Sequence record: NC_135732.1
Source of the DNA: a phage
Direction: 5' to 3' (one strand)
DNA: 64,000 bases
Below, one piece after another: positions 13 through 62,821 of the stretch. How positions within the stretch are numbered: the first letter of the stretch is position 1; each line of letters begins with the position of its first letter. A program made the translations under genes and the position numbers. The notes below the pieces were generated by a model. It was not told the origin of the DNA and did no database searches. It was given only the letters and a program-made list of their open reading frames with translations.

Positions 13-113
13 GGTGCTAGGTGATGGAATCGAACCACCTATGTATTCAACGACTACCTCGTCTATTTTCAGGATTAAAAATCCTCGCCCTTGCCAAAGG
101 GCTTACCTAGCTC
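13..113 (-). tRNA. tRNA-like element, atypical (about 99 nt); possible degenerate or insert-containing tRNA
   Basis: Minus-strand read: 7-bp acceptor stem GCTAGGT/ACCTAGC, D-arm GCCC-loop-GGGC, canonical T-arm GGTGG-TTCGATT-CCATC. No clean anticodon arm; best guess loop UUUUUAA (anticodon UUU) followed by a ~30-nt extra region. Confidence 0.35.
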
Positions 114-209
114 AGTATGTTGACCATGTTGCTAGTCGGCGATGACGACTGTAACATTTGATAATCCGGTTCTGCTTCCGGCTTTCGCTTAATTACAAGG
201 TCAACAATA

Positions 210-300
210 TGGCTGAGGGTAATGGAATCGAACCATCATCAAGTCATCCTCAACGGGACGGTTTTCAAGACCGCTTGAGCACCATTGCTCCCTACCCTCA
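210..300 (-). tRNA. tRNA-Ser (anticodon UGA), long variable arm, CCA encoded
   Basis: Hand-folded on minus strand: acceptor TGAGGGT/ACCCTCA, anticodon loop CTTGAAA, T-arm GATGG-TTCGATT-CCATT, 3' CCA at 210-212. Confidence 0.75.
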
Positions 301-414
301 TTTATAAACAATACTGATAATGACACTGATTTTCGAGCAGTTAGTGACTAGTATAAACGACGATAAATATCAATGCCATTATCTGTATGATTTATGCATT
401 TAAAACTATAAATT

Positions 415-501
415 TGGTGGGGAGTGGTGGAGTCGAACCACCCGAGTCGCAATGACAATAGATTTACAGTCTACACCGCTACCCCTACGGGATAACTCCC
501 C
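415..501 (-). tRNA. tRNA-Tyr (anticodon GUA), long variable arm, CCA encoded
   Basis: Acceptor GGGGAGT/ACTCCCC, anticodon stem GTAGA/TCTAT with loop CTGTAAA, T-arm GGTGG-TTCGACT-CCACC. Confidence 0.75.
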
Positions 502-505
502 AATT

Positions 506-580
506 TGGCACCCCGTACTGGACTCGAACCAGTGTCAACGGCTTAGAAGGCCGCTGCTTTATCCACTAAGCTAACAGGGC
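506..580 (-). tRNA. tRNA-Arg (anticodon UCU), CCA encoded
   Basis: Acceptor GCCCTGT/ACGGGGT (with G:U pairs), D-stem GCTT/AAGC, anticodon stem GCGGC/GCCGT with loop CTTCTAA, T-arm ACTGG-TTCGAGT-CCAGT. Confidence 0.75.
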
Positions 581-7738: not shown

Positions 7739-7994
7739 TCTTGCTAAACCTGTAGAAGCACACCAGTTTGATGGAAGCTCTTCATCAGTATCTGATCTGC
7801 AACGGTGGATTGATACAGGTGTGTTTACATCGTCACCTGTTCGGACCAGAGATATTCGTCGCATGTGTGAGCTTGTTGAGCCGTTTGGCAACTTGGTTTT
7901 GTACCAGGGAGATTGGTTAGTTGACTTTATGGGAGACTGGTTGGTAATGAGTAAAGAAGAGATGTTTAAAATTTTTAAGGAAGAGGCCGAGTAA
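7725..7994 (+). CDS. hypothetical protein
   Basis: 89-aa ORF, overlapping stop/start with neighbours. Confidence 0.45.
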   Translation: MPLFNLAKPVEAHQFDGSSSSVSDLQRWIDTGVFTSSPVRTRDIRRMCELVEPFGNLVLYQGDWLVDFMGDWLVMSKEEMFKIFKEEAE

Positions 7995-9277
7995 TGCATC
8001 AAATCAAAACAACACTGTACGCACTGAACAAAGATGGCAGCTACCAACAGTGGAAAGTATTCACTGATGGCGAAAAGGTTATCGTAGAGTTTGGCAAGCT
8101 TGACGGTAAATTGCAGTACAAAGAGACGGTATGTACACCTAAAAACGTAGGTCGTGCCAACGAGACTACAGCTGAGCAACAGGCCGAGCTTGAGGCTATC
8201 AGCAAGTGGGAAAAACAAGTCCGTCTGGGGTATGTTGAAAACATGGAAGATTGCGAGCAGGGTGTTGATCTTTTACCTATGCTGGTGCATGACTACCTGA
8301 AGCGTGGCAAGGCACTTAAATTACCTTGCTGGATCTTGCGTAAGTTAGATGGCCTTCGTCTGCTTGTTGTTTTCCAAAATGGTGAGCCTAAATTTATTTC
8401 CCGTGGTAATAAGTCCTACCCTATTCAAGGAAAGCTTTTAGAGCAACTTCGTTCTTTCCATTCTACCACTGGGATTAAACAACTTGATGGGGAACTATAC
8501 ATTCATGGTCTTCCTTTGCAGAAAATAGTGTCTCTTGCTAAACGGTGGCGCACACAGGAAGAGATTCAGGCCGAGATCGATAAAGACTATGAGGCAGATA
8601 AAAAACGCCGTCATGCAGCAATTAAGGCAGGCTTATCAACATACAAAAACTTCAACAAGGTAGATATTCCTGTCGATGTTGAGCCTGTTCGTGATGATTT
8701 GCGTTACGGTGGATACTGTAGCTACGATCTGGAGTATCACATTTTTGATATTCCTAGCGACAAGGTGTGGTGGGATCCAGAAACAGAGTCTGGACGCTGC
8801 AAGGATCTTATGGATGCAGAGGATACCGTTACCACTCTGATGCTTGATCATATCAAGGTTGTTGACGCAGAGCTTGCGTACACAGTTGATCATTGCGAAG
8901 AATCTGTTGGTATATTCATGTCCGAAGGATATGAAGGTACTATCATGCGTAATTTCTGCGGTAAATATGAGTATGGTCAGCGAACATCTGAAGCATTGAA
9001 ATGGAAAAAGTTCAACGACGCAGAGGTGAAAGTTATTGACGTTGAGAAAGATAAGAATGATGAAGGTGTTCTTATCTGTGTTGACAAGGAAGGTGTTGTT
9101 GTTAAAATGAAGATGAAAGGCACGCACGAGGAGCGTAGCTATGACAGAATGCAGGAAATGATCGGCAAGTTTGTCACCTTCAAATATCAAGCAAGGACAG
9201 AAGACAACAACTACCAATTCCCTGTCGGTATCTGCGTCCGAAATGTTAACCCAGACACTTGGGAGGTGCTTGAATGA
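7994..9277 (+). CDS. ATP-dependent DNA ligase
   Basis: Ligase motif I RKLDGLR, motif III DGELYIHG, motif IV EGTIMR, motif V KWKK. Confidence 0.8.
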   Translation: MHQIKTTLYALNKDGSYQQWKVFTDGEKVIVEFGKLDGKLQYKETVCTPKNVGRANETTAEQQAELEAISKWEKQVRLGYVENMEDCEQGVDLLPMLVHDYLKRGKALKLPCWILRKLDGLRLLVVFQNGEPKFISRGNKSYPIQGKLLEQLRSFHSTTGIKQLDGELYIHGLPLQKIVSLAKRWRTQEEIQAEIDKDYEADKKRRHAAIKAGLSTYKNFNKVDIPVDVEPVRDDLRYGGYCSYDLEYHIFDIPSDKVWWDPETESGRCKDLMDAEDTVTTLMLDHIKVVDAELAYTVDHCEESVGIFMSEGYEGTIMRNFCGKYEYGQRTSEALKWKKFNDAEVKVIDVEKDKNDEGVLICVDKEGVVVKMKMKGTHEERSYDRMQEMIGKFVTFKYQARTEDNNYQFPVGICVRNVNPDTWEVLE

Positions 9278-9400
9278 TGTAGGAAGGTTCAGTAGGTAAC
9301 GGTAGCCAATTGAATGATGGTTTTCAATCGGCACCTACATAACCACACTGTGTAGTGTTGTTGATCGTGTTAGTTATGAGTAAACTGGAGAGTATGAAAA

Positions 9401-9871
9401 ATGAAACTTGATAAAAATGTTCAACGAAAAGCTTTCTTGGACATGATCGCATATTCGGAAGGCACAGATAATGGTAGGCAACCCACTAAGGATCGGGGAT
9501 ACGATGTCATAGTTGGTGGCAAGCTGTTTAGCGATTACAGCAAGCATCCAGGTGTGTACGTTAAGCTAAATGCTAAACTTACCTCCTCCGCTGCTGGTCG
9601 TTACCAGGTTTTGGAGAAGTTTGCTAAACACTACATGGAACAGTTAGGATTGCCAGATTTTGGCCCCGCCAGTCAGGACAAGATTGCGTTGCAACTGATC
9701 CGTGAGTGCAAGGCTCTCGCCGACATTGACGAAGGGCGTATCCACGAGGCTATCCATAAATGCCGTTCCCGCTGGGCTTCGTTACCTGGTGCTGGATATG
9801 GTCAGCATGAACAGAAGATCGAGAAGTTGATCGAGGTGTTTAAAAAGGCAGGCGGTGTTGTCCTTGATTGA
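9401..9871 (+). CDS. endolysin, lambda R-type lytic transglycosylase
   Basis: Near-colinear with recalled lambda R: RKAFLDMIAYSEGTDNGRQ, GYDVIVGG, AGRYQ, WASLPGAGYGQ. Confidence 0.9.
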   Translation: MKLDKNVQRKAFLDMIAYSEGTDNGRQPTKDRGYDVIVGGKLFSDYSKHPGVYVKLNAKLTSSAAGRYQVLEKFAKHYMEQLGLPDFGPASQDKIALQLIRECKALADIDEGRIHEAIHKCRSRWASLPGAGYGQHEQKIEKLIEVFKKAGGVVLD

Positions 9872-9934
9872 TCATTGACATAACCACACGGACGTGGTAT
9901 TGTTACCTCATAAAATGTTTAGGAGGGCTTAACC

Positions 9935-10141
9935 ATGAAAGATTTTCTGTTGGCAATTTTGTTCATGGTAGCATGTCTGTCCTGTGGTGTCGTGTTTGCA
10001 GGTGAAACAGCGTATCTTGTCGATGTATATCGGGACAATGGTAAACGTATTTGCCTTTATGAGACAAGTCAAGGTGAGCTCTACGAGCTTGTGAAACAAG
10101 GTGAGGCAGGTTCCTGCCCTCGCACCCATTTCTTTGAATGA
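9935..10141 (+). CDS. small secreted or lipoprotein-like protein
   Basis: 68 aa with N-terminal hydrophobic signal LLAILFMVACLSCGVVFA; immediately downstream of the endolysin. Confidence 0.45.
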   Translation: MKDFLLAILFMVACLSCGVVFAGETAYLVDVYRDNGKRICLYETSQGELYELVKQGEAGSCPRTHFFE

Positions 10142-10169
10142 GGGAGAACACGTGGAAGACGGACGTTTA

Positions 10170-10616
10170 ATGAAGTCTGAACGCAGGCTTATTGTGCAAC
10201 TGATCCCAGAAACAGCTTGGTATAATAACCTCCGAAACGCTGTGAAGAAGAGTGAGTGGGATAAGATACGTAAGAAGTGCTATAGAGAAGCCAACTACAC
10301 TTGTGAGGTGTGCGGCGGTAAAGGCAGCAAACACCCAGTGGAGTGTCATGAACTTTACACTTTCGAAGAGGGAGTGATCCGGCTTGTCGGACTGATAGCA
10401 CTGTGCCCGGATTGTCACACATCGGTGCATCCTGGGTTAGCAAATATCCGTGGAAAGTATGCTCAGGCAGTTAATCAGTTGGCTAAGGTGAATAAGATCA
10501 CCAAGAGTATGGCAGAGGCGTATTACCGAGACTGCTTTGCAGAGTGGCGTGAGCTTAGTAAAGTTCCAGAATGGAAGACTGACTTTTCGTGGATAGAGGG
10601 TTACCTTGATGGCTAA
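10170..10616 (+). CDS. putative HNH-type zinc-finger nuclease
   Basis: Cys/His motifs CEVCG...HPVECHELY...CPDCH. Start moved to ATG 10170; track start is GTG 10101 overlapping the upstream ORF. Confidence 0.45.
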   Translation: MKSERRLIVQLIPETAWYNNLRNAVKKSEWDKIRKKCYREANYTCEVCGGKGSKHPVECHELYTFEEGVIRLVGLIALCPDCHTSVHPGLANIRGKYAQAVNQLAKVNKITKSMAEAYYRDCFAEWRELSKVPEWKTDFSWIEGYLDG

Positions 10617-25128: not shown

Positions 25129-26401
25129 GAGGAGACAGCAGACTCCATTCATCACATTAAGTTTAGGACTGGATACCTCGGTCTTTGGTAGAATGATTAC
25201 CAAAAATTACTTGAAAGTCCACAAAATGGGTCTTGGTGAAGAACGGATCACACCTGTGTTCCCTAAAGTGCTGTTCTTCCTAGAAGAGGGTGTCAACATG
25301 AACCCTGGAGATCCTAACTATGATTTGAAACGATTAGCTCTGGAATGCTGTGCAGAACGTATCTATCCTGACTTCGTATCTGTACCACTAAATAGGAAAG
25401 TGACAGGCTCGACAGATGGCAAAGTAACGAGCATGGGTTGCCGGAGTTTTCTTAGCAAATACAATGACTTGGAAACAGGCGAGGAGAAATACCTTGGCAG
25501 ATTTAACTTAGGCGTTGTTAGCCTTAACCTGCCAATGATTGCGGCAAAAGCTAAGACGGAAGGTGTTGATTTCTTTGCAGTTCTTGACGAATACTTGGAT
25601 CTTGCATACGAGGCTCACCTTGTAAGGGTTAACCGTCTAAAAGGAACAAAGGCAGGGCAGAACCCCATCATGTGGTGTGAAGGCGCTCTTGCTCGCCTGG
25701 ATCCTGAAGAAAGTATTGATAAACTCTTCTATGATGGGTACGCTTCCATCAGCATTGGGTATATTGGTGTGTATGAAACCTGTCAGATTTTGGGCAGAGA
25801 AGGTGACAAGGCTTTAGCTCTTGGAATCCTTCAGCACATGAGAGATGCTTGTGAGCGGTACAAGAAGGAAAGTAGACTAGCATTTAGCTTGTACGGCACT
25901 CCTTCTGAGAGTCTATGCTATAAAGCTGCAACCTGTCTGGATCGTGAATATCCTGAAGTGTTGAAGCACGAGCATGAATATCTCACCAACAGTTTCCATC
26001 AGCCAGTATGGATAAATAGCTCTCCTTTTGATAAGTGGGAGTATGAGGAAGGTTTTGCTATGATCTCCTCTGGTGGCAACATCGGATACGTAGAAACACC
26101 TAACCTGAAAAACAACCTGGATGCTTTAGAGGCTCTTGTTGACTTCGGGTATAAACACATTATGTATTTTGGTATTAACCAACCTGTGGATAAATGTCTC
26201 AAGTGTGGTTTCTCTGGTGAGTTCAGTGCAACAGCTAAAGGCTTTGTATGCCCAGAGTGTGGAAACCATGAAGAGGGAACGATCAGTGTAATTCGACGTG
26301 TGTCTGGATACCTTTCCAGTCCTAACTCCCGTCCTTACAATAAAGGTAAGCAAGCGGAAGTTATCGAGCGAGTTAAGCACTACGGAAGTTGTGGTTGCTG
26401 A
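25129..26401 (+). CDS. nrdD: anaerobic ribonucleotide reductase NrdD, exon 2
   Basis: DPNYDLKRLALECC block, C-terminal zinc ribbon CLKCG...CPECG and glycyl-radical motif RRVSGYL. Confidence 0.8.
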
Positions 26402-31498: not shown

Positions 31499-31732
31499 AT
31501 GAAAGTTAAATTTCTTACAGATTTAGGGTACCCTTCCTTGGTTGACTGTGTTGGTAAAATTGTGGAAGCAAAACGGCTATCTGCAAACGAGAATGTTGTC
31601 CTGGTTAAAGGGAAGGATTTACTAGCTGCAGGTGCAGAGTCTGGCAGGATCTCTCCTGATTATATGTATTACCTATCTTTAAGTAATCTGCCAGAGCGAG
31701 GCGGTAAAGGCCTTGAAGTTGTGGAGGAGTGA
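31499..31732 (+). CDS. small acidic protein, MKVK-paralog family
   Basis: MKVKFLTDLGYPSLV...KGKDLLAAGA...LEVVEE; paralog of 35155 and 35372 genes. Confidence 0.5.
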   Translation: MKVKFLTDLGYPSLVDCVGKIVEAKRLSANENVVLVKGKDLLAAGAESGRISPDYMYYLSLSNLPERGGKGLEVVEE

Positions 31733-32262
31733 CAGGTATGCTTCTGATTAACTGGGAAGACCTCTATGGGGACAAAGACCCTGTTGCGTTTGTTGATCGT
31801 AGGTGGAGATACACTGAAGAACAACTGGCGGCAAAAAATTTAACTGCAAAACGCAGAAAGATCATCCAGTGCAAGTACAAATACGCACAGTTTGCTGCAA
31901 AAGTGTCTCCACAAATCGAGAGCTTTGTGCTTAAATTGTATGACGAGTACCTCAAATTCAAATTGGATTTTGTGCAGGTGTACCGTGCACAGGTACGACC
32001 AGATACCAACATATGTAGATGGGAGGTTGTTTGTGAAGGTAAAGATTTGCCGCTCAGCTTGACAATTGAGTGGCGTTATGGGTATCATGAGTGTGGTCTG
32101 TATGATATTTGGGATGTCATTGTAGATCCTGCTAAGCATCTGAACACAGAGGAGCTGGAATATATCAATAAGGTTATTCTCGATATGTTTTTCAGCTACA
32201 CACATGAAAACTCTGAGAAAGAACGGGATAATTTTCTTGACACCCTCAGCGACCATTTGTAG
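31729..32262 (+). CDS. hypothetical protein
   Basis: 177-aa ORF. Confidence 0.5.
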   Translation: MTGMLLINWEDLYGDKDPVAFVDRRWRYTEEQLAAKNLTAKRRKIIQCKYKYAQFAAKVSPQIESFVLKLYDEYLKFKLDFVQVYRAQVRPDTNICRWEVVCEGKDLPLSLTIEWRYGYHECGLYDIWDVIVDPAKHLNTEELEYINKVILDMFFSYTHENSEKERDNFLDTLSDHL

Positions 32263-32292: not shown

Positions 32293-32520
32293 ATGAGTAT
32301 AAATGTTGTGCTAATAGGTTACCTGGTAATGTCCGTTATAACAGCGGTATTCTTGACAGGTGTATGCATCGTGTCCAGACGAAGGGTGAAGTTTGATGAT
32401 TTTATCACCATCATCACTGCTGCACCTTTTTGGCCTGTTGTTATCTTCATCGTAATAATGTGCCTAGTTGATTACTACAAGAATATCAGGAAGGAGAGTA
32501 GGGATGGAGACCGCACCTAA
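32293..32520 (+). CDS. small membrane protein (two predicted TM helices)
   Basis: Hydrophobic stretches VLIGYLVMSVITAVFLTGVCIV and ITAAPFWPVVIFIVIMCLV. Confidence 0.45.
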   Translation: MSINVVLIGYLVMSVITAVFLTGVCIVSRRRVKFDDFITIITAAPFWPVVIFIVIMCLVDYYKNIRKESRDGDRT

Positions 32521-32739
32521 AACTATCTATACTGTTCTTAAAGAGATTGCGTTCTACGCAGATCTTAGCCAGGCACCTTTATGGGAAAAGAGCATGTATT
32601 TAAAATGGTGCGTTAATTTAGGGAGACCTTCCAGTGTTTCAAGCCATGTTTATTGAGATGCTATCTGGGATATTGTTACTGGTAGCCATCTTAGGTGGTG
32701 CAGTTCTGATGTATAACTATCTTGAAAAAGGAGACAGCA

Positions 32740-32925
32740 ATGGTAAAAAATAAATCTTTAGAGCAGGCTGAAAACCTTCTCCACGAGCTGGTAAAGGAGT
32801 GGAAAGTTGAATACTCAGATTTTAATGCACGAGAGGGTGAAGATTATTGGCCTACGGAGCGCTCAGAGGGCGAATGGTATCAAGATTTTATAGAGTGGTT
32901 ATATCAGACGTGCGATGAGGGGTGA
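32740..32925 (+). CDS. hypothetical protein
   Basis: Start ATG 32740 after AAAGGAGA RBS. Confidence 0.4.
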   Translation: MVKNKSLEQAENLLHELVKEWKVEYSDFNAREGEDYWPTERSEGEWYQDFIEWLYQTCDEG

Positions 32926-33392
32926 CGATGTTTGTTAAATATGTAAAAACGTGCCTCAACAGTCTTGGCAGAGAGCATTGGTACACCTTGCTTGAAAAAG
33001 GGGAAATTTTAACAAAATCTGGAAAGATAACTTTGATACCTCTTGATAGTAAAGGTAAAGACCCGTCACGACTTGTTATAGATGATTACGTTACAGGTGT
33101 GACGTTCGAGGTCTCTGTGGAGAGGTTAATACGCAGAGCTGGCGGCCCTTATGACCGAAGAGAGTATGTTTTCGATTCCGTTACAGAGATGGGGGAGCAT
33201 CCGTCTTTAATGTTCAGGATGGTAATCAGAGATATGAGGTCATCTATAGATAGGATCGTAAAGGACATTAAGGAACCTTTTAGAGTAAAAGTTAAGAAGT
33301 TTTTCGATTCTAAGATTAACATACTCGCCGTTGCACTAGGTGTAGTTCAACTTCTGTTAATTTTGCACTATTTTGAACTACTATTTAAGTAG
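32922..33392 (+). CDS. hypothetical protein, C-terminal TM helix
   Basis: 156-aa ORF. Confidence 0.5.
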   Translation: MTMFVKYVKTCLNSLGREHWYTLLEKGEILTKSGKITLIPLDSKGKDPSRLVIDDYVTGVTFEVSVERLIRRAGGPYDRREYVFDSVTEMGEHPSLMFRMVIRDMRSSIDRIVKDIKEPFRVKVKKFFDSKINILAVALGVVQLLLILHYFELLFK

Positions 33393-33454
33393 TAGTTGAG
33401 ATATGGCACAAAGGATGTGCCATAGTGAAATAAACTAAGAAAGAGGTAGAGAGA

Positions 33455-33802
33455 ATGCCAAAGATTAAAACGTTATTACTGTGGGTAGCTGTTTTAGCTT
33501 TTATAGGGTACTGGACTTGGGAAACTGAATTAAAAGATATCGGATATACCAGTCTTGAGAGCAAGGCGTGCATTGGCATAACCGATGCGTTCAGGCAAAA
33601 TGCTCTGGATCACGAATGTGTTGATGCAGATATAGATGAGAAACTGTCTAAGGACAAAGATTTTTACCATGGGCATGCTTTACTTGATAGTGGTGACACT
33701 GTAGAGTTCTGGTCGTGGTTTCGTGAAGATGGAACAATAAAAACAGCAGTAAAGATCTCTAACAAAGAGTTAATGCTGTTGCAGCAAAAGGAGGCTCAAT
33801 GA
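33455..33802 (+). CDS. hypothetical protein with N-terminal signal/TM segment
   Basis: 115-aa ORF. Confidence 0.5.
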   Translation: MPKIKTLLLWVAVLAFIGYWTWETELKDIGYTSLESKACIGITDAFRQNALDHECVDADIDEKLSKDKDFYHGHALLDSGDTVEFWSWFREDGTIKTAVKISNKELMLLQQKEAQ

Positions 33803-38233: not shown

Positions 38234-38309
38234 TTTTCTTGCACACAGGTGTTGACAACGCCAACCCTGTGTGAAATAATACCTTCATCTTAACAAGACA
38301 GGAGACCGA

Positions 38310-38570
38310 TTGATGAAGATTAAATTGAAAAACCTTGAAACGGCAGAGATTCAGGACGGTGTTGATTTCCGTTCTAAAGATGGTGACATCTTAGAGGTAA
38401 ATATTCCAACCTACGAGCTGATCAAAGGTTTTGGCAACGTCCCCGAGGAAGGTATCGCAGACGTTCTTCTAATGTTAATCGTTAGTGGGACAGTGTTCTT
38501 GGGTGAAGGTGAGAACGCTATTGCAATCCCAAGCCATTTTTATGAAGTAGTTGACGAAGAGGTGCTGTAA
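38310..38570 (+). CDS. small acidic protein, paralog family (ends YEVVDEEVL)
   Basis: Promoter-like TTGACA-17-AATAAT at 38252-38280 upstream. Confidence 0.5.
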   Translation: MMKIKLKNLETAEIQDGVDFRSKDGDILEVNIPTYELIKGFGNVPEEGIADVLLMLIVSGTVFLGEGENAIAIPSHFYEVVDEEVL

Positions 38571-39626: not shown

Positions 39627-39890
39627 ATGAACATCCTGATGTGGGTTGTAGCAGTGGCGTTTGTTGCATGTTTTTGCTGCTGGGTTGCGGTGAGGATTTC
39701 TGTAGCTACCCTTCGGAAGTTGGGGTTCTCAGAGTGGGATATTAATATCCTTTCTTTTCGCAATGAAACAATCTCAGCCGCCCTGCTCTGTAAGAAATTC
39801 AAGTGGGAACCTTGCGAGGTCATGAACTATCTAAGAACGGGAGATATCCCTGAAAGATTTAAAAAAGTTCTTGACGACAAGGATAAATGA
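39627..39890 (+). CDS. small membrane protein
   Basis: N-terminal TM helix WVVAVAFVACFCCWVAV. Confidence 0.45.
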   Translation: MNILMWVVAVAFVACFCCWVAVRISVATLRKLGFSEWDINILSFRNETISAALLCKKFKWEPCEVMNYLRTGDIPERFKKVLDDKDK

Positions 39891-40045
39891 TAGTATAGTG
39901 ACTAACAAGAGGTGAGGAATGACTGATTTTACTGAAGCTTTAATGATGGCCTTGTCTGTTTTAGCGCTATCGGTGTGTTTTGGGGCGTTATTCACATCTC
40001 TGGTTAAAGTTTTACATACAGTATTATTACCCAAGGAGCGCAGTA

Positions 40046-40297
40046 ATGACGAAGATTGACTTGAATGCTGGCGATCATGTTGTTGTCAAATGCATTGGAG
40101 ATTATCTTGGATTCACAATCGGCAATACTTACGAGGCGGTAGTGGCGAAGGTTTACTATGATAAAGTCCTCAGTCTTGTATTTGACTGCGATGATGATGG
40201 GGATGACCGATACGTCTGTGAGGTGCTGGCACGAGACGATAGTGAAGACCAGAAATTCCTGGTTATTGAACTGAACGGTATTTTTGTAGAACGTTAA
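40046..40297 (+). CDS. hypothetical acidic protein
   Basis: Start ATG 40046 after AAGGAG RBS. Confidence 0.45.
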   Translation: MTKIDLNAGDHVVVKCIGDYLGFTIGNTYEAVVAKVYYDKVLSLVFDCDDDGDDRYVCEVLARDDSEDQKFLVIELNGIFVER

Positions 40298-45612: not shown

Positions 45613-45865
45613 AATGTTTTCCTCTCTTCTGGTTGTTGTGTGGGCACTTTTGCCCCTTCAAGATAAATGTTACCCCACCCCATGGCAGATGTCAACGGTT
45701 TTTATAGTTCTTATATGACAGGCAGGCCCGGTGATTTGCGATCATAGTGATTCCTCCAGATCTTCCCGAACCTTTTCGGTTTATTCAGTTTATTGTTACG
45801 CTGGCGGCGTTCTGGCAGCTCTTCGGAATCGTGGGGGCGCTTTACAATTTTTTCGAAATTAATTT

Positions 45866-60742: not shown

Positions 60743-62821
60743 TTAAAAAGGTGTTTCATCATCCTCAAAACCAGGGACCGGATCAGAGGATGGATCATCG
60801 TATTGGAGGTCTTCCTGCGTGTCAATAGGCTTGACAGTGGGTGTTACAACCTTATCAGCCACAACCTTGCCCATAGGTGTTTCTACAACTGCATGCTCCT
60901 GATCCTCAAACATAGCCTGAGGTCTCCAAACAACCTCCCCACCTTCTCCGTCTGTAAACATCTGCATTTCTTTGTCCCAGTACCAATTACTGGCATCATG
61001 GAACTTACCTGTATGCGGATCCATAACTAAAGTGTCAGCAATACCTAAAGTTTTTGCTGGACGGTTTTTAAGACCTACCAGACGGACACGTCCACGAGAA
61101 CGATCCACCATTTCTTCGGCCTCGACACCTATGACTACCCAACTCAACTGTTCAAGCCCAGCCGATCCTCGCAAATTCTCTTTTCGCACAGGATACCAGA
61201 AAGGTAATGGGTTACCATCCTTGTCCTTAGGGGGCACAATCTCTGTACGTTTGAGGTGAGCGATCACCAAGATAAACACGTTAAACTGCTTACAAAACGC
61301 AGCCAGTTGGGTCATAGCCATGTCCAGTTCTTTTCGCTCATCCTTAACATTAAGCCCTGAAATTACCATGGACAGGTGATCCAGCACAATATAACGACAA
61401 TGGTACAGGCAAACCATTTGCTTAAGCTTGGTAATCAACTCGTCCACTGGAATAGACCCGAAATGTTTGAACACTTTGATTTTTCCAGCTTTTGCCCATG
61501 ATTGGTGAATCTCTGCGTGTTCTTGATCAGTTAAAAACTGGCTAGGATCTTCAACAAACTCTTTAACATCAAACCCTAACTGGTTTGCATACAAGGAGTT
61601 AATTGCTTCCTCTGGGTCCTCCTCAAGATGGATCATACATAGACGATCATCCTCTTCATAGTCATCAGCCTTCGGGCATGTTGGGTCCATTAGGTATCTT
61701 GCAATACAATGTTCCAGTTTTTTAGCTACGGTTGTTTTACCGCCACCTGATGGGCCTGTAAGCATTACAAGTGTCCCCTTGTGCAAGCCTTTTAACATTT
61801 TTTGCAGTTTTGGGAACTCTGCACTGATATCTACCCCGTTGGAAGTCTTTTTCCGCAAAGACTCGATAGAGAAGTCTTCTAAGTCCGACACAGCATCAGG
61901 CACATATTTAACAGGATGCCGGAACATGTTGACAATATCTTCCAGCTTTTTAGCCTTCAGCATGTCACGGATATCTTTTACCCCGTCAGGGTCATTTACT
62001 TCACCAGGGTATTCTACGTGGTAAACGTTATCAGCCATCAAAAATGCTGCGATATTGTGCGTGGCCTCAACACCTTTAATGACGTGTTTTTGCTTCTCTA
62101 CCTCGTTGGCTGCATCGTTATCCATTGCCAGCACAACTGTTCCATAGCTACGGATAAACTTCTCATTGTTTGCAAAAGTATCTACTGCGTTTGCACATCC
62201 ACAGTTAATTCCAACAAAAGGTAGGCAGGGTTTTCCTGCCAGATCACCACCGTTGATAACTGCATCGATCCCGTCCTGGACCTCTTTAGCCCACTGTTTC
62301 ACCTTTGCCGGGGCTTTAGCATTGGTGAGAATCCCTTTTACTTGTATCTGATATGCAGCCTGCCATGCTGCAATAACATCGCCTTCCCCCTCACAAACGT
62401 TAATCTGCTTACGGTTGTTAGAAGATGCACACAGCTTTTGCCCAAACATTTGGGAGTTAGCCTTTACGATCCCAACCGTCGTAAAGTGCCCACGTTGCTC
62501 TTTGGGGATCGTCCAGTCACGCTTTTTGAAACCGGACAGATTCCCGTAGCGGTCGTAATATGGGAAATATGTTGCAGTAACTGTCACACCGTCTTCTTGG
62601 GACAATGCTGATCGCACACCAAAATATTGTGCAGCCATCAGACCGATATTTTGTTGTGGGACAGGGACAATTTTAGTATTTTCTAAAACAGTCTCTACAG
62701 TTTCAACTTCTTTTTCATCACGATAGTCTCGTTTCACACTTCCCCCACTTTTATACTTAGTTGCTTTCGGGTTTGGCTCACCGAAACGGTTGTATGCAGA
62801 TGCCATAAATTTACTTCCCAT
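60743..62821 (-). CDS. primase-helicase (T7 gp4-like: TOPRIM plus DnaB-type helicase)
   Basis: TOPRIM CEGEGD and LAMDNDAAN; Walker A LTGPSGGGKTT; acidic C-terminal tail ...FEDDETPF. Confidence 0.8.
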   Translation of the reverse strand: MGSKFMASAYNRFGEPNPKATKYKSGGSVKRDYRDEKEVETVETVLENTKIVPVPQQNIGLMAAQYFGVRSALSQEDGVTVTATYFPYYDRYGNLSGFKKRDWTIPKEQRGHFTTVGIVKANSQMFGQKLCASSNNRKQINVCEGEGDVIAAWQAAYQIQVKGILTNAKAPAKVKQWAKEVQDGIDAVINGGDLAGKPCLPFVGINCGCANAVDTFANNEKFIRSYGTVVLAMDNDAANEVEKQKHVIKGVEATHNIAAFLMADNVYHVEYPGEVNDPDGVKDIRDMLKAKKLEDIVNMFRHPVKYVPDAVSDLEDFSIESLRKKTSNGVDISAEFPKLQKMLKGLHKGTLVMLTGPSGGGKTTVAKKLEHCIARYLMDPTCPKADDYEEDDRLCMIHLEEDPEEAINSLYANQLGFDVKEFVEDPSQFLTDQEHAEIHQSWAKAGKIKVFKHFGSIPVDELITKLKQMVCLYHCRYIVLDHLSMVISGLNVKDERKELDMAMTQLAAFCKQFNVFILVIAHLKRTEIVPPKDKDGNPLPFWYPVRKENLRGSAGLEQLSWVVIGVEAEEMVDRSRGRVRLVGLKNRPAKTLGIADTLVMDPHTGKFHDASNWYWDKEMQMFTDGEGGEVVWRPQAMFEDQEHAVVETPMGKVVADKVVTPTVKPIDTQEDLQYDDPSSDPVPGFEDDETPF

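Follow-up and report, generated by a model that had tools for sequence, protein, structure and literature searches.

Introduction

In phages related to rV5, the genes for host lysis are not gathered in a single cassette. A dispersed layout has been described for rV5 itself (PMC3606486, 'Lysis' section) and for LL12 (PMC6658697), CB7 (PMC7344957), Gotham (PMC7471380), and BME3 (PMC12210895), and the analogy with the dispersed lysis genes of T4 is drawn in PMC3606486 and PMC7344957. In the rV5 study, gp89 was called 'an obvious lysin', no holin homologue was found, and gp129 was put forward as a candidate holin (Kropinski et al., PMC3606486). No holin has been identified for the rV5-like group in papers published from 2013 to 2025 (PMC3606486, PMC6658697, PMC7471380 for Gotham, and PMC12210895 for BME3). 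With regard to spanins, rV5 is listed among the 'separated' two-component families (Kongari et al. 2018, PMC6139136), and the spanins of rV5 and PVP-SE1 adjoin the terminase gene, outside any lysis cassette (CB7 paper, PMC7344957). The lysin of the rV5-like phage vB_EcoM-ECP26, LysECP26, is 98% identical to the rV5 lysin and has been purified, with Glu20 as its catalytic residue (PMC9728275). Here we examine the endolysin gene at positions 9401-9871 of a 64,000-nucleotide stretch of phage DNA (sequence record NC_135732.1), referred to below as the window, together with the genes that may act with it in lysis.

In T4, the lysis genes are dispersed as e, t, the spanin genes pseT.3/pseT.2, rI/rIII, and rIIA/rIIB. 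A preliminary description of the window, made from the sequence alone, had pointed to a lambda R-type endolysin among genes of DNA metabolism without an obvious holin or spanin pair, and had implied that this was surprising. The surprise is unwarranted, as published work shows lysis genes to be dispersed as a rule in rV5-like phages and in T4. We conclude that the gene very probably encodes a soluble R-type endolysin within the dispersed, T4-like lysis layout of Vequintavirus, with an unlinked holin and terminase-linked spanins. The arrangement is ordinary because it was described for rV5-like phages in 2013, and the combination of a stand-alone endolysin, terminase-side spanins, and a missing holin has been known for these phages since then.

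Results

The endolysin gene (9401-9871, plus strand) encodes a protein of 156 amino acids (aa), of which residues 4-154 match the lambda lysozyme structures 1am7/3d3d (phmmer against PDB, E=3.4e-56). The protein also matches PHROG 90 'endolysin' (E=3e-56), is 62.4% identical to lambda R over its whole length by tblastn, and is 100% identical to several Vequintavirus lysins; rV5 gp89, LL12 gp90, and LysECP26 are its orthologues. It is a homologue of the lambda R-type lytic transglycosylases, enzymes whose muralytic activity releases 1,6-anhydro-muropeptides. Pfam and NCBIfam scans returned zero matches, which is a limitation of both libraries for this protein, and the family assignment therefore relies on PDB, PHROG, and tblastn to lambda R. 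The motif around the catalytic glutamate is conserved (AYSEGTD, aligned with AWSEGTD in lambda), and this residue is the one called Glu20 in LysECP26. The N-terminus, MKLDKNVQRKAFLD, is hydrophilic, and across the whole protein there is no 19-residue window with a hydrophobicity of at least 1.6, no transmembrane domain (TMD), and no signal peptide or signal-anchor-release (SAR) segment. As a hydrophobic N-terminal segment is lacking, the endolysin is predicted to be soluble and cytoplasmic rather than of the SAR or signal-peptide type. The GC content of the gene is 47.6%, against a window mean of 42.9%.

By sequence comparison, the window derives from a Vequintavirus, an rV5-like virulent myophage of E. 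coli in the subfamily Vequintavirinae. Around the endolysin gene, a 4.4-kb stretch shares 99.9% identity with Escherichia phages ime, JLBYU08, and nomo. Identity exceeds 95% for about 110 further rV5-like phages, and in 111 records the match spans at least 80% of the query. The window as a whole is collinear with LL12 and HeinrichReichert, with few indels and 96-99% identity over aligned stretches, and its first base aligns with LL12 position 62184.

The left neighbour of the endolysin gene encodes an ATP-dependent DNA ligase (7994-9277, plus strand; Pfam PF01068 and PF14743). To the right, beyond a gene for a 68-aa protein, lies an HNH (homing) endonuclease gene (10152-10616, plus strand; PHROG 5200, E=3.5e-72), the orthologues of which carry the annotation HNH or homing endonuclease in relatives. 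No holin gene stands directly beside the endolysin gene, and the 68-aa signal-peptide protein is the sole membrane-targeted open reading frame (ORF) within 2 kb; a TMD scan found no other coding-strand ORF with a transmembrane segment at 7.4-11.3 kb. Spanin genes are also absent directly 3' of the endolysin gene. A lipobox/TMD pair was not found in the window, where a lipobox scan from every start codon returned just two ORFs, the 68-aa one and an implausible, overlapping, out-of-frame one. With neither a holin nor a spanin gene adjacent, the endolysin gene does not lie in a canonical lysis cassette. The preliminary description was thus right in calling a lambda R-type endolysin, in placing it between the ligase and an HNH-like gene outside a late lysis cassette, and in seeing no adjacent holin or spanin; a canonical holin and spanin were also looked for immediately outside these features and were not found.

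A consensus scan revealed a strong, near-consensus sigma-70-like site with an extended -10 element inside the ligase gene (TTGACA-16-TAAAAT; 9081-9108, plus strand), and no plus-strand terminator is predicted between ligase and endolysin. The same kind of scan placed a sigma-70-type promoter (TTGACA-17-TATTGT; 9875-9903, plus strand) just downstream of the endolysin gene, where the GenBank annotation of rV5 has its promoter 'P90'. The rV5 late-promoter-like motif TGGTAAAATA has no copy just upstream of the endolysin gene or of the gp129 orthologue described below. When the 5' region of the endolysin gene was folded, sequestration of the ribosome-binding site like that of T4 e was not significant (z=-0.62). 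Given the sigma-70 site at 9081 and the lack of a ligase-lysin terminator, a late motif, and a 5' structure, the endolysin is probably an early/middle product that is stored in the cytoplasm.

The spanins are found beside the terminase gene. In LL12, the o-spanin gp65 and the i-spanin gp66 have their genes directly upstream of that for the large terminase, on the opposite strand, and in HeinrichReichert the spanin genes bas58_0001 and bas58_0002 lie beside TerL. The pair matches Rz-like spanins in PHROG (1e-48 and 1e-22); the 132-aa spanin has an N-terminal TMD, and the 95-aa spanin has an LLCGC lipobox and a proline-rich stretch. Because the first base of the window corresponds to LL12 position 62184, the pair (LL12 60847-61529) is expected beyond the left end of the window, at a distance of 655-1337 bp. 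This places it about 10 kb from the endolysin gene and on the opposite strand, with the tRNA cluster and leftward early genes in between. The earlier suggestion, namely a holin and spanins located elsewhere or of a non-canonical kind, agrees with these positions, and also with the holin searches reported below, in which no known holin family was found.

The only nearby candidate partner named in the preliminary description is the product of the 68-aa gene (9935-10141, plus strand; rV5 ORF90), which lies directly 3' of the endolysin gene across a 63-bp gap. This protein could be imagined as a partner of the endolysin, acting as a non-canonical single-TMD holin or antiholin, as an o-spanin-like lipoprotein, or as a periplasmic regulator or inhibitor. 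Its position, its strongly hydrophobic N-terminus (Kyte-Doolittle (KD) value 2.73), its lipobox-like MVAC14, and its predicted export to the compartment where the endolysin acts are all consistent with such a role. However, an alignment of 30 homologues indicates that the hydrophobic N-terminal part varies among them and in every case terminates in AxA-type signal-peptidase I sites, and that the cysteine of the lipobox-like motif is missing from most. The protein is thus most likely cleaved and soluble rather than anchored or lipidated, with a cleavable signal peptide (VFA before the cut and GE after it) ahead of an approximately 45-aa mature domain. Its mature part contains a single proline; a conserved lipobox cysteine, a proline-rich domain, and an adjacent i-spanin gene, as expected of an Rz1-like o-spanin, are all lacking, and in this respect the preliminary description had correctly noted a signal peptide and a protein that is not proline-rich like Rz1. 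Moreover, P90 is predicted, in line with the rV5 annotation, to drive the 68-aa gene independently of the endolysin.

The distribution of the 68-aa family also argues against partnership. A profile search retrieved 170 clusters; among the matches listed, those with long contigs were Vequintavirinae-sized (about 120-160 kb), and named carriers include Escherichia, Serratia, Cronobacter, Klebsiella, Salmonella, and Pectobacterium phages, with Seunavirus also represented. In all three loci inspected (4MG, ChuuTotoro, and ABPH49), the homologue sits in the corresponding ligase...HNH...exonuclease block and has no R-type endolysin as a neighbour, and the GH19 endolysin of 4MG is encoded elsewhere. 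A homing endonuclease gene stands between the lysin and the 68-aa homologue in DrSchubert and FV3. The presence of the 68-aa gene is unrelated to that of the endolysin, and since Vequintavirinae retain the protein regardless of which endolysin type they carry, it would be neither a spanin nor a holin. The mature domain contains two invariant cysteines (C40 and C61) within a conserved LVDxYxDG...C.Y..S.G...AGSCP pattern. An AlphaFold (AF2) model with a predicted local distance difference test (pLDDT) score of 83 consists of a signal helix followed by a small four-stranded beta-barrel, and a fold search of PDB with this model was uninformative (best E=0.014). Judging from these features, the protein is probably a secreted, disulfide-bonded periplasmic mini-protein that is core to the subfamily, and we regard a partnership with the endolysin as a most unlikely explanation of the locus.

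Known holin families in Pfam and PHROG were not represented among the coding-strand TMD proteins of the window, nor among candidates from other parts of the genomes of HeinrichReichert and 4MG. The window ORF at 32293-32520 (plus strand), 22.4 kb downstream of the endolysin gene, is 92% identical to rV5 ORF129, and the published holin candidate is therefore present. Its 75-aa product has two TMDs, at about residues 4-26 and 37-58, and a C-terminus rich in lysine and arginine (KNIRKESRDGDRT), which agrees with a class II-like holin in size, TMD number, and charged tail. The neighbours of this gene bear no muralytic signature, and the gene is not linked to the endolysin or to a spanin gene. The gp129 family comprises 26 clusters confined to Vequintavirus-like genomes or contigs; a profile search against 1.8 billion representatives yielded six hits, of which P0149, the remote one examined at its locus, occurs in contigs syntenic with Vequintavirus.

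Several further membrane proteins are encoded around the gp129 orthologue and at the end of the rightward transcription unit. Downstream of gp129 lie a 39-aa ORF with a single TMD (32634-32753), a 156-aa protein with a C-terminal TMD (32922-33392; PHROG 7821 'virion structural protein'), and a 115-aa protein whose N-terminal segment is hydrophobic (33455-33802). A diverged metagenomic relative shows synteny across this block of small membrane proteins (32293-33802). Two adjacent membrane proteins are encoded where the rightward unit ends, one of 87 aa with an N-terminal TMD (39627-39890) and one of 46 aa with one TMD and an acidic tail (39919-40059); this pair has no family annotation and no counterpart in 4MG.

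Two annotations in the BASEL record were considered and set aside. The 'putative holin' bas58_0116 does not qualify as a conserved holin, as it lies in a 5.8-kb HeinrichReichert segment for which the window has no equivalent, and tblastn detected no diverged copy. This accessory segment (L009 35030-40868; window junction at about 45720-45736) holds several tiny membrane ORFs in addition to bas58_0116. The 'putative glycosidase' at 31729-32262, just upstream of gp129, might have marked a hidden second lysis cassette; it has no support from Pfam, PDB, or NCBIfam and only two homologous clusters, and by the sequence methods used its label is unsupported.

Outside the window, in the late tail-fibre cluster, bas58_0037 and bas58_0039 match 4MG_042 and 4MG_040. 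The HeinrichReichert genes (38242-38556 and 39701-39967; 4MG 25218-26287) encode a 104-aa protein with a TMD and a coiled coil and an 88-aa protein assigned to PHROG 1322 'membrane protein'. In T4, t lies downstream of gene 38, and the position of bas58_0037/bas58_0039 recalls that of T4 t. Because they are encoded late and conserved in the same manner as the spanins, these two proteins are at least as plausible holin candidates as gp129; from their position, an antiholin role is also possible. It is possible, if on balance rather unlikely, that the holin serving the lambda-type endolysin belongs to an undescribed family represented by the gp129 orthologue (32293-32520) or by bas58_0037/bas58_0039. 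A less likely addition to this proposal, by analogy with T4 Spackle, is that the 68-aa mini-protein might modulate murein hydrolysis or superinfection.

The endolysin locus has features of an exchangeable cassette. The 12-mer ACATAACCACAC occurs as exact copies only twice in the 64 kb, one on either side of the endolysin gene: at 9337-9348 (plus strand), 53 bp upstream of the start codon, and at 9878-9889 (plus strand), inside P90, where it marks the right boundary of the variable cassette. The upstream copy resembles a decayed duplicate of the -35/spacer region of P90. Most Vequintavirus records carry alleles more than 95% identical to that of the window, which has no adjacent homing endonuclease. 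Divergent alleles were found in FV3 (85% identity), EduardKellenberger (66%), and DrSchubert (51%), each with a free-standing homing endonuclease gene attached. For DrSchubert and FV3, the sequence becomes homologous to the window again, abruptly, at 9866-9871, past the divergent lysin allele or the homing-endonuclease insert, and this boundary coincides with the downstream copy of ACATAACCACAC.

Beyond the genus, the nearest lysins belong to Salmonella phage 'seszw' and records related to it (about 70%); those of lambdoid phages come next (about 62-66%). Seunavirus 4MG lacks an R-type gene and encodes a GH19-type lysozyme (PF00182; PHROG 181) between glutaredoxin and PhoH, and no GH19 gene was found in Vequintavirus. 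As far as these sequences indicate, Vequintavirinae use non-orthologous endolysins at different sites. We infer that the endolysin locus may have been acquired horizontally and that it may undergo ongoing allele exchange assisted by homing endonucleases; such exchange is ordinary for large virulent phages.

A few observations concern the genome at large. HeinrichReichert is only 89-93% identical to the window at 43-49 kb, a hypervariable zone. About 20 GenBank records titled 'Campylobacter phage' (MG0656xx) are 97-100% identical to E. coli rV5-like phages, and this similarity suggests mislabelled or contaminant assemblies. The tRNA cluster occupies window positions 13-580. At 13-111 (minus strand), ARAGORN reports a 99-nt tRNA of undetermined identity with a four-base anticodon loop call (atcc), and its orthologue is labelled tRNA-Lys in the LL12 and BASEL records, with a note on inconsistent isotype prediction. 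Going by the ARAGORN call, this tRNA may be unusual or may contain an intron.

Discussion

The findings fit a lysis scheme in which the components act together although their genes lie apart. The endolysin gene would be part of a long rightward early/middle unit, transcribed by the host sigma-70 polymerase with the ligase gene or just after it, and the enzyme would accumulate harmlessly in the cytoplasm. Early synthesis of a soluble endolysin would do no harm because the holin, and not the endolysin, sets the timing of lysis. Upon permeabilisation of the inner membrane by an unlinked holin, the endolysin would reach and cut the murein, and the unlinked, terminase-linked two-component spanin would then disrupt the outer membrane.

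A number of points weigh against this scheme. The gp129 protein has no similarity to any Pfam or PHROG holin family and no dual-start motif. Its loop between the two TMDs is strongly basic (SRRRVKFDD), and under the positive-inside rule this suggests an N-out/C-out topology, unlike that of class II holins. It also has no counterpart in Seunavirus 4MG, although the spanins are conserved there. As for the enzyme, LysECP26 is reported to be toxic to E. coli when over-expressed (PMC9728275), and this toxicity hints at some holin-independent access to the cell wall. In addition, the early production of the endolysin, its cytoplasmic storage, and its dependence on a holin are steps that we infer. 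Finally, the phage genome encodes a second candidate muralytic enzyme, so that the R-type enzyme may not be the sole muralytic activity at lysis.

This second enzyme, the SleB-like hydrolase bas58_0065, has a Sec signal peptide and a Hydrolase_2 domain (PF07486, 2e-19) and matches PHROG 938 'endolysin'. Its gene is located directly upstream of rIIA/rIIB in HeinrichReichert (MZ501073 58669-59169), about 6 kb past the right end of the window, and is conserved in 4MG (4MG_270, E=4e-53). One could therefore propose that lysis is holin-independent or built on this Sec-exported hydrolase, and that the R-type gene is an accessory, recently acquired moron. The proposal gains from the conservation of the SleB-like protein in a genus where the other enzyme is non-orthologous (R-type in one genus, GH19 in the other), and 'two endolysins' appear in published accounts of the subfamily (PMC12210895; PMC7344957). 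However, an intact R-type gene occupies the same site in all of the roughly 120 Vequintavirus records, and divergent alleles have been replaced, not lost, which argues for selection on R-type function. The purified orthologue LysECP26 is a potent muralytic enzyme (PMC9728275), and an active hydrolase exported constitutively would require regulation of its own, of which none is known. Thus, we consider it very improbable that lysis is organised in this manner with the R-type gene as an accessory, and the reading of a soluble endolysin released by an unlinked holin is retained.

The finding matters little beyond correct annotation, as the enzyme has already been characterised biochemically. The identity of the Vequintavirinae holin is a genuine if modest gap. 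It has some practical bearing because rV5-like phages serve in phage therapy and biocontrol, for which the timing of lysis and the engineering of lysis cassettes are important. The search for this holin has been narrowed, in that the adjacent 68-aa gene is ruled out and bas58_0116 belongs to an accessory segment missing from the window. Moreover, gp129 is restricted to the genus, as opposed to the spanins and the two late membrane proteins, which are conserved subfamily-wide.

When compared with lambda, the window endolysin resembles R in its identity of about 62% over the whole length, its equal size, its retained catalytic glutamate, and its lack of an export signal, and dependence on a canonical large-hole holin would be expected from this likeness. 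In contrast to the S-R-Rz/Rz1 cassette of lambda, no S-type holin gene precedes the endolysin gene and no Rz/Rz1 genes follow it, and the gene belongs to an early/middle operon for DNA metabolism in a virulent myophage of 137 kb. LysECP26 is muralytic by turbidity reduction on EDTA-treated Gram-negative cells, the outer membrane having to be permeabilised from outside (PMC9728275); that work concerned the isolated enzyme alone, and in-phage partners were outside its scope.

The likeness to T4 lies in the arrangement. The genes for endolysin, holin, and spanins are unlinked, each spanin has a separate gene that is not embedded in the other, and homologues of rIIA/rIIB are present. The enzymes differ in type, as T4 E is a T4-lysozyme-type muramidase and the window enzyme is lambda R-type. 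Furthermore, no homologue of the T holin was found, and rV5 lacks homologues of the late-transcription proteins gp33/45/55 (PMC3606486).

The closest systems remain those of the rV5-like phages. With respect to HeinrichReichert, the window differs in lacking the segment that holds bas58_0116. With respect to rV5 and LL12, there is no difference of substance: the genes are orthologous and in the same order, with the lysin between the ligase and ORF90/HNH, a gp129 orthologue at 92% identity, and spanins of separated architecture beside TerL.

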